DNA from: an uncultured Eubacteriales bacterium
Lineage (GTDB): Bacteria > Bacillota_I > Bacilli_A > RF39 > UBA660
Assembly: GCA_905372515.1 (NCBI GenBank)
Contig: CAJPPJ010000001.1
Span: forward strand, 1-43,681
Reading direction: 5' to 3'
DNA: 43,681 nt
The notes below the pieces were generated by a model. That model saw only the letters and a list, made by a program, of their open reading frames with translations, ran no database searches and was not told where the DNA came from. This document shows, piece after piece, positions 9,914 to 17,765 of the stretch. The position numbers were made by a program, and so were the translations under genes. How positions within the stretch are numbered: position 1 is the stretch's first letter; each line of letters starts with the position of its first letter.

Positions 9914-10864
9914 ATGATATTAAATTTGGTATTTTTAATAGTTGGTTTTATTATTTTAATTAAAGGTGCAGATATTTTTGTAGATGGAGCTAGTGCAGTA
10001 GCAGGTAATTTTAAAGTATCTAAGATGTTAATAGGGCTTACAATAGTAGCTTTTGGTACAAGTGCACCTGAATTAGCAGTTAGTATAAAATCATTAATAT
10101 CTGGTAGTGGAGATATGGTTTTAGGAAATGTTATTGGTAGTAATATTTTAAATATTTTATTAATATTAGGTATATCTGCAATATTTCATTCTTTAACAGT
10201 TAAAAATAATACTGTTAAAAAAGAACTTCCTATAACTCTAATGATTACTACAGCTTTTGCAGTACTTTTATCAGATAGTATTTTTACAAAAAATGTAACT
10301 AATTCTTTTACTAGGGGAGACGGTATAGTACTTTTATTATTCTTTAGTGTGTTTATGTACTATTTAATAAGCATGTCTAGAAACAAGATAGATGAAGATA
10401 GTAAAGATACTTATCCATCTATGAAAAAAGCTTGTTTTTTAACTATTTTAGGACTTATAGGAATAGTACTTGGTAGTAACTTTGTAGTAGATGGTGCTAG
10501 TGGTATTGCTAAAATAATTGGAATTAGTGAAAGAATGATATCTTTAACTATAGTTGCAATTGGAACTTCACTTCCAGAACTTGTTACAAGTGTTGCTGCA
10601 ACTAGAAAAGGTGAATATGATATTGCAATAGGAAATGTAGTAGGAAGTAATATATTCAATATAGGTATTGTTATTGGTATACCAGTAGCTATATTTGGAG
10701 GAATATCTAAAATTAACTTTAGTTATATAGATATAGTAGTTATGATTTTATCAGCATTATTCTTATTTATATTTTCATATAATGATCATAAAATTTCTAG
10801 AAAAGAAGGAATATTCTTTTTACTAGCATTTATAGCTTATTATAGTTATGTTATATTTGGATAA
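9914..10864 (+). CDS. CaCA family cation/Ca2+ antiporter (YrbG-like sodium/calcium exchanger).
   Basis: Two internal alpha-repeats: GTSAPELAVS..GNVIGSNILNI and GTSLPELVTS..GNVVGSNIFNI. About 10 TM segments. Confidence 0.9.
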   Translation: MILNLVFLIVGFIILIKGADIFVDGASAVAGNFKVSKMLIGLTIVAFGTSAPELAVSIKSLISGSGDMVLGNVIGSNILNILLILGISAIFHSLTVKNNTVKKELPITLMITTAFAVLLSDSIFTKNVTNSFTRGDGIVLLLFFSVFMYYLISMSRNKIDEDSKDTYPSMKKACFLTILGLIGIVLGSNFVVDGASGIAKIIGISERMISLTIVAIGTSLPELVTSVAATRKGEYDIAIGNVVGSNIFNIGIVIGIPVAIFGGISKINFSYIDIVVMILSALFLFIFSYNDHKISRKEGIFFLLAFIAYYSYVIFG

Positions 10865-10950
10865 TTAATTTTTAAATTTAAGACAAGAAAATTTATATTG
10901 CTATTAATTACTAAAAATTTAAATATTAGTAGTAAACTTAATAAAAATAA

Positions 10951-10976
10951 GTAGTTATATAACTACCTATTTTTAT
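10951..10976 (+). terminator. Rho-independent terminator (AT-rich stem).
   Basis: Palindrome GTAGTTAT/ATAACTAC followed by ctattttta. Confidence 0.5.
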
Positions 10977-11170
10977 TAAGAATATGATACAATTATTTTA
11001 AGAATTAACTTTTAGAAATAAAGAAAATCAAGTTGATATGTTTTTGCACTGAAAATTTTTATTTTAAAATTTAATAGATAAATGTGAATAAGATTAATGA
11101 CCAACGAGAATAATTTTAAAAAACTAATAGTTAAAAATAATAAACATTATTTGTAAGGAGATAATTATAA

Positions 11171-12319
11171 ATGAGTTTAGAAGATAAAATAAATTATTTA
11201 GATTATAAATATCAATTTGTAAAAAATAATAAATACTGGGATTATAATAGATTATATAATATAAGTATAAATAATAAAGAATATAAAATATTAGAAAATG
11301 ATATTTTATTAAATGTTGCAAAAGATATCTCTAGAAAAACTGATGGGGATTTTGTTGATAGAAAATCAATGAGAGATTATGAAATACCAAATATTGATAT
11401 AGAAAGAATGAAAAAAATAGTTATAGATTTTTTTAATCAAGTTAATCCTGAATATTATAAAAAGCTAGAATTATTATTATCTAAGACAAAGTTTATAAAG
11501 TATGATGAAAACAAACCAAGTGATAATCAAAGATGTGTTCTTAATTCTGATGGAATCAAAATTTATTACCAAAATGATTTAAATACATTAGTGAATTTAG
11601 CTCATGAATTAAGTCATGGAATTTCTCGTTTAAATAATAATTTAGAAGAAAAGTATAATGATGAAGTTGAAGTACTTTCGGAAGTTGAATCTCTGATGAC
11701 AGAAGACATATTTCTAGAATATTTAAAGTATAAAAATCTTCAAATAAAAGAAAAAAATTTGGCTAATGAAGTAATAACATTAGATGAAGATATTATTAAC
11801 GATATAAAATATAGTAAATATAAGACATATATTTATTGTGCGTATAGAGCAATAGATGAATTAGAATTTAAAAATATCTTAAAGAGAAATAAAATAAATA
11901 ATATTGATAAAGATTTTATAGAAAGAATATCTAATTTTACGAATATATCAAATGATGATGTTATTTCAAGAATTGATAGATTTATAAATAGATATTATCC
12001 AAGTGATAATAATGTACACGATTATATAGGTATTTCCAATTATGATTTAAAAAATGGTCAACAATTGTCAAATGAATCTAGGTTTATTTATGCAGAGTGT
12101 TTAGTTGAAAAATTTAATAATATGAATCTAGATAAAAATCAAAAAGTAGAATTTTATAAAAATTATTTAAATAGTGCAAAAGATATGAGTTTTCAAAATG
12201 TTTTACAATTGTTTAATGTTAATCTAATGAATATAAGTAGTTTTTCTGAAGATTTTATTAGAAAATTTAATTCTTTATCCGATGATGTTAAGAAAAAGCC
12301 ATTGCCACCACAATTATAG
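11171..12319 (+). CDS. Short M3 (oligoendopeptidase F)-like zinc metallopeptidase.
   Basis: LAHELSHG (HExxH) followed by EVESLMTEDIFLE, a third-ligand Glu region like the M3 E.aS..E. 382 aa against about 600 for typical PepF. Strong SD AAGGAG. Confidence 0.55.
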   Translation: MSLEDKINYLDYKYQFVKNNKYWDYNRLYNISINNKEYKILENDILLNVAKDISRKTDGDFVDRKSMRDYEIPNIDIERMKKIVIDFFNQVNPEYYKKLELLLSKTKFIKYDENKPSDNQRCVLNSDGIKIYYQNDLNTLVNLAHELSHGISRLNNNLEEKYNDEVEVLSEVESLMTEDIFLEYLKYKNLQIKEKNLANEVITLDEDIINDIKYSKYKTYIYCAYRAIDELEFKNILKRNKINNIDKDFIERISNFTNISNDDVISRIDRFINRYYPSDNNVHDYIGISNYDLKNGQQLSNESRFIYAECLVEKFNNMNLDKNQKVEFYKNYLNSAKDMSFQNVLQLFNVNLMNISSFSEDFIRKFNSLSDDVKKKPLPPQL

Positions 12320-12393
12320 TTTTTTTAAAATATAAAATTGTTTTTTAAAACAAAAGGCTTATTTTTATGAATAATGTAAAAAGGAGGTAAAAC

Positions 12394-12786
12394 ATGGATT
12401 TTAATTATGAACAAGAAGAAAATAAATTAATATTAGTAAATGAGAATATATAGTGCTTTTCTTAATAAGAAAACTAAAATGAATGATGGAATAATTAAAA
12501 TTATTGATTTTGAAAGATTAATGTATGCACTAAGAGATTTTGAATTAGATATTTTATATAGAATGATTAGAAAACCTTGGAAATTTGCAAGTGAAGAAAC
12601 AGAACAATTTACTGATTCTGTCATTATGCAAATATAATGTCATATATAGAAAAATATTATCCAGAATTAATCCACATTGATAATTTATATCAAAGATTAG
12701 CTATATATGATATGGTTTACTTTATGAAATATTTAATAAAACATTTTGAAATAGAAGAATTAAAAAAGAAAAGTATTCTATCTTGA
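12394..12786 (+). pseudogene. Frameshifted remnant of a phosphotransferase (APH/choline-kinase-like) C-terminal region.
   Basis: A strong SD (AAGGAGG) plus ATG 12394 gives only 19 codons. The reading continues in the +1 frame (12440-12637, ..GIIKIIDFERLMYALRDFELDIL..) and then in a third frame (12637-12786, YYPELIHIDNLYQRLAIYDMVYF..). Confidence 0.45.
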
Positions 12787-13003
12787 CGCTATTGATGTTA
12801 TGCCGGACTATAAAAGCAATGGTTATGGAACAGGTTTAATATCATTTGCTTGTGATTTTGTTAAAACTATTGATTGTTATAAAATGTATTTAATAACTAA
12901 TAGAAGTAATGTATCTACTTGTAAATATTATGAAAAAGCAGGAGGAATAAATAAAGCAGATTATGAAATTATTTATGTGTATGATTTTAAGGAGAAAAAC
13001 TAA
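12764..13003 (+). pseudogene. N-terminally truncated GNAT acetyltransferase remnant; only the motif A/B half is left.
   Basis: The frame opens at 12764: ..YLDAIDVMPDYKSNGYGTGLISFACDFVK..YLITNRSNVSTCKYYEKAGG. That is the acetyl-CoA loop and C-terminal half of GNAT with no N-terminal half. TAA overlaps the next ATG (TAATG). Confidence 0.55.
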
Positions 13004-13896
13004 TGGATATAAAAAAGATAATAGAGGAAAAATGTAATATAAATATTGATAGTATAAAATTAATAGGCAAAGGATATGACAGTAAAGCATACATTGTAAA
13101 TAATGAATATGTTTTTAAAATTAAATTTAGTACTAATAAGAAAAAAGGGTATGAAAAGGAAAAAGTAATATATGATTTTTTAAATAAAAAATTAAATACA
13201 AGTATTAAAATACCAAATATAGAATATTCATTTATAAGTGAAGAAGTATCTATTTTAGGGTATAAAGAGATTAAAGGAACTTTTTTAACACCGGAAATTT
13301 ATTTTACTTTATCTAAAGAAAATCAAGAACTATTGAAACAAGATATTGCTATTTTTTTAAGACAAATGCACGATTTGGATTATAGTGAAATAAGTTCTTA
13401 TACAATAGATAACAAGAAAAATGTTTTAGAGGAATATCAATTGTTAAGGGATACTCTTTATGATAGTCTTACTGATGCTGAAAAGAAATATGTTGAAGAA
13501 TTTATGCAAAGATTACATATTACAACTATATTTGATGGTAAAAAGTGTTTATGTCATAATGATTTTAGTTGTAATCATTTATTGCTTAATGATGATAATA
13601 GATTATGTGGTGTAATTGATTTTGGGGATTCTGGAATTATAGATGAATATTGCGATTTTATATATTTGCTAGAAGATAGTGAGGAAGAAATAGGTAGAGT
13701 ATTCGGAGAAGATATATTAAGATTATATGGAAGCATTGATATAGAAAAAGCAAAAGAATATCAAGATGCTGTGGAACAATATTATCCTATTGAAACTATT
13801 GTTTATGGCATTAAAAATAATAGACCTGATTTTATTGAAAAGGGTAGAAAAGAAATATATATAAGAACTCATAAAAATGAAAAATTAAGGAAGTGA
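13003..13896 (+). CDS. Aminoglycoside 2''-O-phosphotransferase, APH(2'')-Ia-like.
   Basis: Kinase motifs [12 protein letters not shown] and IDFGDSG. Long stretches match my recollection of the APH(2'') domain of AAC(6')-Ie/APH(2'')-Ia ([88 protein letters not shown]). Confidence 0.8.
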
Positions 13897-13900
13897 TGCT

Positions 13901-14752
13901 ATGAGCAATTTAAATGAAAATAAAATAAGTTTTAATTGGTATCCAGGTCATATGGAAAAGACCAAGAGAAAGATAAAAGAAATTGAAGGTTTAATAGATA
14001 TAGTATTAGAACTTGCTGATGCTAGAATTCCTATAACATCTAGATTAAATAGAGACTTTTTAACGAATAAAGATAGTATATTAATACTTACTAAGTATGA
14101 TTTATGTGATAAAGAAAAAACTGATAAGTTAGTAGAAGAATTAAAGAAAACTTATAAAGATGTTATATGTACATATATAGGGGACAAAACTATTAAATCT
14201 AAGATTAAAAATATAGCAGAAAATATACTTAAAGAAAAAATAGAAAAAAGAGAAAATAAAGGGCTTATTAAAAGAAAAATAAGAGCGATTGTAGTAGGTA
14301 TACCTAATGTTGGTAAATCAACACTTATTAATACTTTATGTGGTAAGACAGTTGCTAAAGCAGAAAATAGACCTGGTGTTACTAGAAGTTTAGAATGGCT
14401 TAAGATATCACCTGATTTTGAATTTATTGATTCTCCTGGAATTCTTGGTAAAAAGTTCTCATCAAAAGAAGAGGCTTTTAGACTTGCAAGTTTATCAAGT
14501 GTTAATGAAGCTATATTAAATTATCAAGATTTAGCTATTTTTATATATGAAGAATTACGTGATAAATATCCAAATCGTTTCTTAGAATTTTATAAAATAG
14601 ATAATTTTACTGACTTTTTAACAGATATAGAAAAGATTGCTAAAAGAAAAGGTTGTTTATTAAAAGGTGGGGTAGTAGATATAGATAAAGCTTATTTACT
14701 TTTATATCAAGATTTTAAAAATAACAAGTTTGGAAAAATTACATTAGATTAA
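13901..14752 (+). CDS. rbgA: Ribosome biogenesis GTPase A (YlqF/RbgA).
   Basis: FNWYPGHMEKTKRKIKE, a circularly permuted GTPase (LTKYDL then GIPNVGKST, DSPG). Confidence 0.9.
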   Translation: MSNLNENKISFNWYPGHMEKTKRKIKEIEGLIDIVLELADARIPITSRLNRDFLTNKDSILILTKYDLCDKEKTDKLVEELKKTYKDVICTYIGDKTIKSKIKNIAENILKEKIEKRENKGLIKRKIRAIVVGIPNVGKSTLINTLCGKTVAKAENRPGVTRSLEWLKISPDFEFIDSPGILGKKFSSKEEAFRLASLSSVNEAILNYQDLAIFIYEELRDKYPNRFLEFYKIDNFTDFLTDIEKIAKRKGCLLKGGVVDIDKAYLLLYQDFKNNKFGKITLD

Positions 14753-14800
14753 ATTGAAGTTATAAATAAATTTCACTATAATGATTATAAGGAGAAAATT

Positions 14801-15880
14801 ATGAAAAATATAAATATGTCTATCATTAAGTTTATTAGTAGAATAAGTGATTATTTATATGAAACATTACTTTTTATTCAAGATAAAATTAATGTATTTG
14901 ACTTAAAAAAAGTATTAAAATTAGTTATTAAAATATTACTTTTTGTATTAATTTTTTGGATTATAAAAGCTTTTATAGTTCCTTTAGCGTCTATATTTGC
15001 ACTCATTATAGATACTTTTAGTAATATTTTAAAAGGTACGTTTTCAAATGTGTTAACATTTGCACTTTACAATTTCTATTATCTATATTTTTATTTAAGC
15101 TTATATAAATTTATAAAACATTTAATAGATGAAAAAGATATTAACATTTTTAAATCTACAATGATTAATAAGCAATTAGTTAAAATAAATGAACTTATTT
15201 TAAAATTATTAAAAATTGTACTTTATATCTTTTTACTTCCATTATTTGCATTAGGAGTAGTAGGAGTATTATTCTTTATATATTTAATATTCTTAATATT
15301 TAAAGGAAGTTTTATTTTTAGTTTATATTTAATTGTTATAGCATTAATAGTTGCAACTTTATGTTTATTAAAATATATTCTAGGATTTATACATGATCAA
15401 AATAAGAAAAAATATAAATATATAGCTATATTTTCTTATATTAGTATTTTCTTATTTACATTACTTTTTATGTTTGAAACAAGAAATTATAAAGTAATAA
15501 ATGATATTAAAACACTTGAATTAACTAAACACAATATAACATATCAAATAGATAAAGGTATTGAAATATCTACTAGTGGATTTTATGAAATCAAGTATGA
15601 TGAAAAAGTTAAAAAGGGAAATTTGAGAATTAAATTTGAAAACTACGAAACAACTTCTTATACTTTAGATACTAAGACAGAAAATAATAAAACTAAATTA
15701 GAAATTAATTACTATATTAATAATAATGTAGAAAACTTTAAGAATATTGTAAAACTATTTAATGATTCTTTAATAAAGAAACAATTTTATGATTATTCAA
15801 GATTAAAGTATGGTAAATTAACTATTACTATTAATCCAAAAGATAAAAATTTATTAAAAGTTATAAAAAATGCTAAATAA
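14801..15880 (+). CDS. Multi-pass membrane protein of unknown function with a C-terminal soluble domain.
   Basis: 359 aa with about 6 hydrophobic segments, then a Lys/Asn-rich beta-like tail. Strong SD AAGGAG. Confidence 0.65.
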   Translation: MKNINMSIIKFISRISDYLYETLLFIQDKINVFDLKKVLKLVIKILLFVLIFWIIKAFIVPLASIFALIIDTFSNILKGTFSNVLTFALYNFYYLYFYLSLYKFIKHLIDEKDINIFKSTMINKQLVKINELILKLLKIVLYIFLLPLFALGVVGVLFFIYLIFLIFKGSFIFSLYLIVIALIVATLCLLKYILGFIHDQNKKKYKYIAIFSYISIFLFTLLFMFETRNYKVINDIKTLELTKHNITYQIDKGIEISTSGFYEIKYDEKVKKGNLRIKFENYETTSYTLDTKTENNKTKLEINYYINNNVENFKNIVKLFNDSLIKKQFYDYSRLKYGKLTITINPKDKNLLKVIKNAK

Positions 15881-16472
15881 TAGAGAATATGAAGAAAAAT
15901 ATAGTAATTTAAATTACATTTGTGGAGTAGATGAAGTAGGTAGAGGACCACTTGTAGGACCAGTAGTAGCATCTGCTGTAATACTTCCTAAAAATTATTT
16001 TATAGAAGGATTAACAGATTCTAAAAAGTTATCCAAAAAGAAAAGAGATTATTTCTATGAAGTTATCCAAAAAGATGCTTTAGCTATAGGTATTGGAATA
16101 GTTGATAATAAAAAAATAGATGAAATAAATATTTTAGAAGCATCTCGTTTGGCTATGAAAAAAGCTATAAATAATTTATCTATCAAACCTGATATAATTC
16201 TTACTGATGCTATGAGACTTGATATGGGAATACCAGAAGAGGATATAATTAAAGGTGATTTAAAAAGTATTACAATATCTGCAGCTAGTGTAATAGCTAA
16301 AGTTACAAGAGATAAAATGATGGAAGAACTTCATGAAAAGTATCCAATGTACAACTTTATTAAAAATAATGGTTATCCTACTAAAGAACATATAGAAGCA
16401 ATTAAAAAATATGGAATAATAAAAGAACATAGAAAATCATTTAGACCTATAAAAGACACTATAAATAATTAG
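15870..16472 (+). CDS. rnhB: Ribonuclease HII.
   Basis: GVDEVGRGPLVGPVVASAV, DSKKLS and ISAASVIAK motifs. 200 aa. Confidence 0.9.
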   Translation: MLNNREYEEKYSNLNYICGVDEVGRGPLVGPVVASAVILPKNYFIEGLTDSKKLSKKKRDYFYEVIQKDALAIGIGIVDNKKIDEINILEASRLAMKKAINNLSIKPDIILTDAMRLDMGIPEEDIIKGDLKSITISAASVIAKVTRDKMMEELHEKYPMYNFIKNNGYPTKEHIEAIKKYGIIKEHRKSFRPIKDTINN

Positions 16473-16485
16473 TGTCTTTTTTTAT
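16452..16485 (+). terminator. Rho-independent terminator overlapping the rnhB stop.
   Basis: Stem aaagacact / agtgtcttt followed by a T7 run. Confidence 0.7.
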
Positions 16486-16487
16486 TT

Positions 16488-16497
16488 ACTTAATATA
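16488..16497 (+). repeat. Left copy of the direct repeat ACTTAATATA; the preceding T-run and AT are also shared with the right copy.
   Basis: C-T7-A-TTT-ACTTAATATA here against C-T9-A-TG-ACTTAATATA at 19864-19886. Confidence 0.4.
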
Positions 16498-16535
16498 TCA
16501 AATTGTATATTATTAATAATAGGAGGAGAATACTT

Positions 16536-17765
16536 ATGAATGAAAGATTAATGAATCTTGATGATTTAGATAAGTATGGTCAAAATCTTATAACTTATTC
16601 TGATTATGTAAATGATTCTATGAATAAAATAGCAGCAGGGTTTAATAATTTATATGCTGCAAAAATAATCCAAGGAAGAAGATCTAAAGTATTTATAGAT
16701 GTATATAATGAAATGGATGAGTCTAGAAAGAATGTTGTAGATAAACTATATGAAGTAAAAGAGTTTGTTGATACTGTAAGAACAGCTATGCAAAATCTTG
16801 ATGCAGATCAAGCCAAGAAACTTCAAACATCACTAGATGAAATGGGTATAAAAAAGGGACAAAATGGAAATAGTGGTGGTTCTTCCTCTGAAGGAAATAG
16901 TTCAGGACAAGGAGGAAGTGCTCCTTCAAGAACAACTTCAGAAGCAGATGAGCAAAGAATAAGAGAAGAATTAAGTAAAACATCAAGTGAAAATAATACA
17001 GGTCAAGGAACTGATGAAACTCAGTCTTCAGATCAAGATGATAATAAAACAACTACATTAGAAGAAACAGAAACATCAACTACAAAAAAATATAGTACTA
17101 GAGATAATATAAGTCCTTATGATAACCTTAATGAAGATTATATTCCACCAGAAAAGATGGATGCGGAATATGAAAAATATGCTAATACACGTTATACAGG
17201 TTCAAGAACTATGAGTAAAGAAGAATTTGAGATTAAACATTCTAATCTATCTCCAGAAGAAAAGAATTATCGAATGCAAAATCTAATAGATAAAGATATG
17301 CGTAATAGGGGTACAGCTAATGTTTCATATAACACTTCTTACGGACAATCATCAAATTATCATATGGAACAAACAGCAGAAAATTATATAAACAATATGT
17401 ATAAAGATAGAAATTATGATCCAGATGGACCACTATTTGGTAGGCAATTTTCTAAAGGTTATGACATACATTCTATAAAAGATCTTTATAAAAATTCAGA
17501 TGGACATGGTGGTATGTATACTCCATGGACTGAAAATAACGTCGGTTTGACAGTAAAAGAAACATTAAAAGTAGATGGAAAAGAATATACTTTAACAGTT
17601 GATACAGATAAGCTTCCAACAAATAGAGAATGGAATCAAGCTAAAGAAGATTTTATTAGACAAGTAGCGAAACCAGATTCAATTATTGAATCATCTAAAA
17701 CAACTTATAGTTTCTTTAATTTAGATTTAGAAAAAGCTAAACAAGCATATGAAAAAACTTTATAG
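16536..17765 (+). CDS. LXG-like (I-x-G) N-domain protein with a Gly/Ser/Thr linker and an unknown C-terminal cargo domain. Putative type VII secretion-type substrate.
   Basis: N-terminal 105 aa are paralogous to 18126 and 18806 (NKI..GF.NL...KIIQG at residues 45-47). ATG 16536 follows AGGAGG, so the TTG 16503 extension is rejected. Low-complexity stretch GNSGGSSSEGNSSGQGGS. Confidence 0.6.
   Translation: MNERLMNLDDLDKYGQNLITYSDYVNDSMNKIAAGFNNLYAAKIIQGRRSKVFIDVYNEMDESRKNVVDKLYEVKEFVDTVRTAMQNLDADQAKKLQTSLDEMGIKKGQNGNSGGSSSEGNSSGQGGSAPSRTTSEADEQRIREELSKTSSENNTGQGTDETQSSDQDDNKTTTLEETETSTTKKYSTRDNISPYDNLNEDYIPPEKMDAEYEKYANTRYTGSRTMSKEEFEIKHSNLSPEEKNYRMQNLIDKDMRNRGTANVSYNTSYGQSSNYHMEQTAENYINNMYKDRNYDPDGPLFGRQFSKGYDIHSIKDLYKNSDGHGGMYTPWTENNVGLTVKETLKVDGKEYTLTVDTDKLPTNREWNQAKEDFIRQVAKPDSIIESSKTTYSFFNLDLEKAKQAYEKTL

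Follow-up and report, generated by a model that had tools for sequence, protein, structure and literature searches.

An intact APH(2'')-If-family kinase gene, probably imported with a now decaying gene cluster, next to rbgA in an uncultured gut Bacillota species

The DNA analyzed here (the window, 43,681 nucleotides or 43.7 kb) comes from the MAG of an uncultured gut Bacillota species (67 contigs, 0.76 Mb, 93% complete, 23.4% GC). Between a CaCA antiporter gene and rbgA it carries an accessory island (10873–13912) which consists of a 382-aa open reading frame, the debris of a kinase gene, a truncated GNAT acetyltransferase gene and an intact aph(2'') gene; all window genes and remnants described below lie on the forward strand. 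The open reading frame at the head of the island, p382 (11171–12319), is found only in strains which bear the island. It contains a HELSHG motif and belongs to no significant Pfam or NCBIfam family, the match to Peptidase_M91 being weak (E 0.08).

The aph(2'') gene (13003–13896) starts with ATG, stops with TGA and encodes a protein of 297 aa. The protein scores 612.6 bits with the NCBIfam model for APH(2'')-If/Ih (NF000498, cut-off 600), which covers residues 1–297 of 297, and is therefore a member of this family. It also passes the broader Ia/If/Ih model NF033692 (583.2 bits, cut-off 475) and fails the models for APH(2'')-Ia (NF000508, 490.8 bits, cut-off 600) and APH(2'')-Ii (544.4 bits, cut-off 625). 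Pfam PF01636 is matched with an E-value of 1.8e-25. The sequence-only reading had described a stand-alone chromosomal gene close to the APH(2'') half of the bifunctional resistance enzyme AAC(6')-Ie/APH(2'')-Ia. This description is accurate, as the kinase has its own ATG and Ia-type alleles are 76.2% identical to it on the amino acid level across residues 12–292, that is, practically over the whole kinase domain. The APH(2'')-Ia stretches and kinase motifs which had been quoted in that reading are all identical when the protein is aligned with HMMER to the solved domain of APH(2'')-Ia (PDB 4ORK/5IQA; E 1.4e-142). The catalytic motif block is located at residues 183–194 with HNDFSCNH as the HxDxxxxN catalytic loop, and IDFGDSG at residues 204–210 contains IDFGD with the DFG-like Mg-binding Asp; both motifs are the same as in the solved domain, and the Gly-loop Ser of GxGYDS is kept as well. 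In contrast to the bifunctional enzyme (about 479 aa) the window kinase lacks the fused AAC(6')-Ie, the GNAT upstream being a separate and different small gene, and an IS256/Tn4001 context is absent from the window.

Comparison with the named alleles gave amino acid identities of 90.6% to APH(2'')-If of Campylobacter jejuni (pGMI16-002), 84.5% to Ih and 79% to Ii. If and Ih are themselves 90.2% identical, so that the window allele and Ih lie equally far from If. A maximum-likelihood tree, a check which the earlier reading had proposed, gives the window allele a separate branch of length 0.09 in one unresolved group with the clades of If and Ih. The separate branch and the identity of at most 90.6% to any named allele identify the gene as a family member, yet as a new variant; the earlier statement that it is not the clinical allele was thus correct. 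Judged from the sequence it is best named an APH(2'')-If-family variant, about 9% off If. An exact-protein look-up for the L017 allele gave no match. By homology the product should be an aminoglycoside 2''-O-phosphotransferase which would use GTP/ATP to modify the 2''-OH of 4,6-disubstituted aminoglycosides such as gentamicin, kanamycin and tobramycin. For aph(2'')-If, resistance to gentamicin, kanamycin, sisomicin and tobramycin is given in a statement of PMC8531746 which cites Toth et al. 2013.

All 105 alignment columns which are invariant among 37 other family members are kept in the window allele, and unique changes at near-invariant sites are restricted to two conservative exchanges, A55V and Q139K. 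Compared with If there are 28 amino acid differences, with a dN/dS of 0.08 and a dS of 0.60. These values indicate that the lineage has been under purifying selection for a long time and that the gene is no recent copy of the clinical allele; even the nearest known alleles are still at dS 0.6. The window kinase is functional-looking by these measures.

The gene belongs to a module (12766–13903) in which it is preceded by the 3' half of the gene for a 142-aa GNAT. The module also occurs, at 89–90% nucleotide identity, on Campylobacter plasmids and in numerous MAGs and isolates from the gut which belong to several phyla and include Clostridia, Bacilli, Lachnospiraceae, Blautia, Collinsella and Kribbibacterium; the homology runs exactly from 12766 to 13903. 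In the window the GNAT gene is truncated at its 5' end (12766–13003) and codes for residues 65–142 of the 142-aa protein. On the amino acid level the fragment has 86% identity to the complete GNAT which precedes the kinase gene on C. jejuni pGMI16-002 (aph(2'')-If) and on contig L172, and it matches Pfam Acetyltransf_1 with an E-value of 2.7e-9. Its TAA overlaps the ATG of aph, and the same TAATG stop/start overlap is present in the Campylobacter If loci. The window thus has the stand-alone 297-aa kinase behind a small GNAT with stop/start overlap, here with only the 3' half of the GNAT gene; a GNAT–aph pairing is seen with Ih and Ii, too. The best NCBIfam matches of the 142-aa GNAT (rimI, sat4 and AAC(6') group E) are all far below their cut-offs, group E reaching 27.8 bits vs 140.

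The Campylobacter jejuni/coli APH(2'')-If loci (NF000498; e.g., WP_021424053.1, pGMI16-002) therefore resemble the window in the stand-alone kinase of 297 aa, in the upstream GNAT with TAATG and in a tail of the form SD-TGA-N4-ATG (SD, Shine–Dalgarno sequence). They differ from it in that the window GNAT is truncated and the gene is chromosomal, next to rbgA, with neither plasmid, IS nor ant/aph neighbors. The two parts of the module have diverged from the Campylobacter copy to a different extent: the GNAT fragment (12766–13000) shows a dS of 0.15 and a dN/dS of 0.40, aph (13003–13893) a dS of 0.60 and a dN/dS of 0.08. Although the fragment is short, the gap in dS is a hint that the 1.1-kb module may be a mosaic.

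Upstream of the module there are remnants of further genes. A frameshifted kinase remnant (12479–12765) corresponds to the C-terminal ~100 residues of a 625–635-aa two-domain APH-like kinase; in tblastn and tblastx searches it aligned in two frames with residues ~520–617 of the double kinases in contigs L036, L085 and L172 (37–42% amino acid identity). Still further upstream (12394–12453) an SD and an ATG are left from the 5' end of a lost gene, the frame of which stops after 19 codons. The kinase remnant is ~37% identical to the L172 kinase, compared with 86–92% for GNAT and aph, so the imported cluster was either a mosaic or its pieces arrived separately or have separate histories. The genes found upstream of If in Campylobacter, an "aminoglycoside 3'-phosphotransferase/choline kinase" and an ant-like gene, were also considered as the source of the debris, but they do not match it; the 625–635-aa double-kinase family matches instead.

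The right end of the module (13887–13912) reaches into rbgA. It provides the SD of rbgA, AAGGAAG (13887–13893), which lies inside the last aph codons, and downstream of the aph stop codon (13894–13896) a new ATG with three codons (13901–13912). The tight packing of aph against rbgA had been noticed from the sequence alone, and it is confirmed here. The rbgA (ylqF) gene itself (13901–14752) encodes a ribosome-biogenesis GTPase (TIGR03596, 284 bits) which is 96–97% identical to the proteins of the congeners and has a chimeric N-terminus (MSNL followed by NENK...). In the conspecific strain L166 and in the sister species G001 the native start of rbgA reads AGGAGTTAAGTCAAATGAATGAAAA, in the window AAGGAAGTGATGCTATGAGCAATTTAAATGAAAA. 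Split at the start codon the native sequence is AGGAGTTAAGTCAA-ATG-AATGAAAA, while in the window the ATG and three codons of the module (ATGAGCAATTTA) are fused to codon 2 of rbgA. Because the native start was replaced by this fusion, the essential rbgA now depends on an SD within aph and on the start codon of the module. The 3' end of aph is thereby fixed in place, since an essential gene now takes its translation start from it.

Other hosts share the SD-TGA-N4-ATG stretch, and there it serves to start different genes: in all of them the ATG of the next gene comes 4 nt after the aph stop, and this gene encodes an AAA ATPase or an S51-type protein or is, in the Campylobacter type, the duplicated 3' end of a kinase gene. 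On a Campylobacter plasmid with aph(2'')-Ih an S51-like gene is located 3' of aph (L093:5138–5668). Downstream of aph in the window the first terminator-like hairpin (16451–16480) follows rnhB and is the sole terminator-like site in the region 10800–16600. Since this is the only downstream hairpin, aph, rbgA, a gene for a 359-aa membrane protein and rnhB are likely co-transcribed. Judged from this gene arrangement, transcription of aph together with rbgA and translational coupling of the two are probable. A promoter scan of this 23% GC DNA returned 58 sites with 60 expected.

The protein is found, identical and in identical context, on 20 contigs from independent samples, some of them several hundred kb long, and a 99%-identical variant is present in the same context on an 835-kb scaffold. 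With such recurrence the arrangement is not an assembly artefact. The joining of a foreign resistance contig to the MAG by binning or assembly might be suspected from the 67 contigs of the MAG and from the frequent mis-binning of resistance genes. However, the gene lies in the middle of the 43.7-kb window, both junctions recur on independent scaffolds of up to 835–849 kb, and the start of rbgA is physically fused to the module, so that we attach practically no weight to this explanation.

The borders of the island follow from the comparison with strain L166. Its alignment with the window ends at 10872 and resumes at 13913, and in between L166 has a DUF6414 gene and a 122-aa open reading frame; the breaks in this alignment define the island as 10873–13912 and place it in a recombination hot spot. 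In the sister species G001 the slot is almost empty. Directly upstream of rbgA it contains only an 84-nt scar corresponding to 12344–12427 of the window (82% identity). In the other sister species, G002, the slot is occupied by about 5 kb of other, unrelated accessory genes (L010:5634–10743), which include a GNAT, an RlmA-like rRNA methyltransferase and an S51/peptidase-E-like gene. A BLAST alignment starting at window position 13873 appeared to be a scar of the aph 3' end in G002; on inspection the similarity is confined to the SD and low-complexity sequence. We searched the window around the gene and the island borders for transposases, integrases, IS, transposons and att-like repeats and found none, the only repeats being AT-rich chance repeats. 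The earlier remark that no IS or transposon is visible thus proved right for the window.

The gene is rare among the relatives of the host. No homologue is present in the 40 nearest genomes (0/40), both congeners included, and none was found in the 24 family-level relatives first searched. Among 399 genomes of the class three contain an aph homologue, and the two other than the window gene are fused forms of 484 aa with 75% and 39% identity. A core gene would be found at the same position in the sister species and most relatives, and this is not the case for aph. With the slot of G001 nearly empty and that of G002 filled with other genes, the proposed check whether related genomes carry orthologues at the same place next to rbgA came out negative.

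We further compared ten conspecific loci, which were chosen by means of the antiporter gene and not by means of aph. In four of them (L162, L164, L168, L169) a T7 homopolymer at codons 117–119 (13352–13358) is shortened by one nucleotide to T6, and this frameshift cuts the protein short behind residue 118. The T7 run is peculiar to the window allele; If and Ih read ATGTTTTTA at this place. Two further loci (L167, L170) have TAA instead of the CAA codon of Gln121 (13363–13365). Three copies are intact (L161, L163, L165), and L166 is without the island. Since two independent knock-outs, or the absence of the island, are encountered among conspecifics, selection for the kinase is weak or intermittent in this host. 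Strict anaerobes take up aminoglycosides poorly, and this is a likely reason for the weak selection. One of the strains, L169, deserves a separate remark: on its contig (L169:6846–7913) the similarity with the window breaks off within rbgA, near window position 14158, and the called gene runs into an rve-type transposase/integrase domain. Either an IS has inserted here or the contig is chimeric.

These observations raise the question whether the reading frame is a relic, intact by chance but silent or useless, and kept mainly because its 3' end carries the ribosome-binding site and start of rbgA. In favor of this, the other genes of the cluster next to it have been destroyed already, and the species harbors two inactivating mutations of independent origin, with no change at the 3' end and at the rbgA junction. 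A kinase would, in addition, probably be of little benefit, as strict anaerobes import aminoglycosides poorly. Against it, the window allele retains every family-invariant residue, the historical dN/dS is 0.08, and the exact intact protein occurs on 20 contigs, with intact copies also in three of the ten conspecific loci. We consider this explanation rather unlikely.

Differences in the island among strains amount to 0.2–1.4 per kb compared with 5–11 per kb in the flanking core genes, figures which are biased, like the allele frequencies, since the strains for the diversity analysis were picked by exact protein identity. With strains chosen by such an exact match, the low diversity suggests that the island may have spread through the species more recently than the standing diversity of the species arose. 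As the sister species G001 carries the 84-nt scar of the island 5' end, part of the island may predate the species. Such an older part would fit poorly with the low within-species diversity unless there was a recent sweep.

An intact counterpart of the eroded locus is found elsewhere. The closest aph allele (L012 type, 91.6% identity) is located in an intact cluster on contigs L172–174, which encodes in this order a TraG-like conjugation protein, a 544-aa open reading frame, a GNAT, a 633-aa double kinase, a 142-aa GNAT, APH(2''), an AAA_33/zeta-like P-loop kinase, a GNAT, a 410-aa open reading frame and an Erm-like rRNA methyltransferase. The patches in the window, namely the kinase 3' end, the GNAT 3' half, aph and the ATG of the next gene, follow the order of the core of this cluster. 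On contig L172 (L172:1–11176) the cluster adjoins the gene for the TraG/VirD4-like conjugation protein and ends with that for the Erm-like rRNA adenine methyltransferase, which suggests a multi-resistance region on an integrative conjugative element (ICE).

Two large chromosomal contigs of uncultured Bacilli MAGs (L085:3527–10237 and L036:3626–9609) contain fused AAC(6')-APH(2'')-like genes of 484–487 aa which are 68% and 80%, respectively, identical to the window kinase. They are embedded among four to six GNAT genes, a 625–635-aa double APH-like kinase and an AAA-type kinase. These clusters are a possible reservoir for the clinical bifunctional enzyme. As a group the chromosomal or ICE-borne clusters of uncultured gut Bacillota (L172–174, L036 and L085) share with the window the order double kinase, acetyltransferase, APH(2'') and next gene 4 nt past the stop. 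They are intact, though, with several GNATs, an AAA_33 kinase, an Erm-like methyltransferase and in some cases the fused AAC-APH, whereas of all this the window has retained only aph in complete form.

Taken together, we propose with a probability of about 85% that the window gene is an intact APH(2'')-If/Ih-type variant which was horizontally acquired within a multi-gene cluster, and that this cluster is now decaying next to rbgA. The cluster, comprising the double APH-like kinase, the 142-aa GNAT, APH(2'') and the next gene, would have entered the gut species with its ~0.8-Mb genome of 23% GC by horizontal transfer and landed in the variable slot just upstream of rbgA. Most of the kinase gene and the GNAT 5' half would later have been lost by deletions, among them one of ~230 nt which may have extended from the last codons of the kinase to codon 65 of the GNAT and created the junction at 12765/12766. 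Deletions would also have fused the start region of the module's next gene, with its SD and ATG, onto rbgA, and from then on aph would probably have been co-transcribed with and translationally coupled to rbgA. Import followed by internal deletions is the simplest reading of the matching gene order, on which this scheme is built. The locus would then illustrate the fate of a resistance cluster in a streamlined anaerobe, in which the neighbors erode and the resistance gene itself gains knock-outs in the population.

The sequence-only reading had instead taken the species for a native host which could bear on the origin of the clinical gene. According to this explanation the aph(2'')-If/Ia-type genes of pathogens would have spread from the AT-rich lineage or from its direct ancestors. 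The composition agrees with it, as gene and window have the same GC content (0.234) and the alleles remain at 21–26% GC even in hosts of 57–64% GC; the gene is moreover chromosomal, free of IS and present in more than 20 independent assemblies, and its dS of 0.6 from If excludes a recent copy of the clinical allele. Yet aph is missing in both congeners, in the 24 family-level relatives and in 396 of the 399 class genomes, and in the conspecific strain without aph the rbgA gene has retained its original start. The species frequently carries knock-out alleles, and the island is less diverse than its flanks. The GNAT partner is truncated here and intact elsewhere, so that the intact operon cannot stem from this locus. 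The truncation of the GNAT and the replacement of the rbgA start are both derived, and the lineage was thus a recipient and not a donor of that operon. We therefore regard a native origin in this lineage as very improbable. The part of the earlier idea which named the window species as source has to be abandoned, and what survives is the compositional hint that the low GC content of the alleles matches such genomes. The source of aac(6')-Ie/aph(2'')-Ia is accordingly not identified by the window gene.

For the family as a whole, for which roughly 480 metagenomic homologues were recorded, this hint can be taken further. Every family allele has a GC content of 21–26%, as determined from 80 genomes including hosts in which the flanking DNA has 56–64% GC, and the deepest allele diversity (65–92% identity, stand-alone and fused) is encountered in AT-rich MAGs of uncultured Bacilli, Clostridia and Mollicutes, within GNAT/kinase clusters. 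On the basis of composition and allele diversity this points to very AT-rich gut Bacillota, though not the window species, as the home of the family, and it narrows the search for that home. One could go further and suppose that the Ia/If/Ih/Ii family evolved and is still diversifying in AT-rich small-genome gut Bacillota, that the window allele would be an old resident and not a spill-back from pathogens, and that unfused kinase–GNAT–APH(2'') would be ancestral, with AAC-APH fusions repeatedly assembled by recombination at short conserved junctions; this wider scenario we would call doubtful. Uncultured gut commensals with reduced genomes do harbor members of the APH(2'')-If group which are diverged and look intact, and standard tools would flag these only as "If/Ih family".

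Two minor observations concern gene surroundings in other genomes. In the sister species G001 (L011:2657–3895) a 412-aa open reading frame resembling tyrosyl-tRNA synthetase is located between rbgA and the gene for a 360-aa membrane protein; the window has no gene at this place. In the Campylobacter-type If loci (L092:6131–6260, C. jejuni pGMI16-002) the final 20 codons of the upstream kinase gene are repeated behind the aph stop, with the start of the ant-like gene following once more. This stretch is identical in L013–L016, L021, L022, L041, L082 and L083, and the recombination junction lies at a short conserved GATATGG. The breakpoints of this duplication recur in unrelated hosts.
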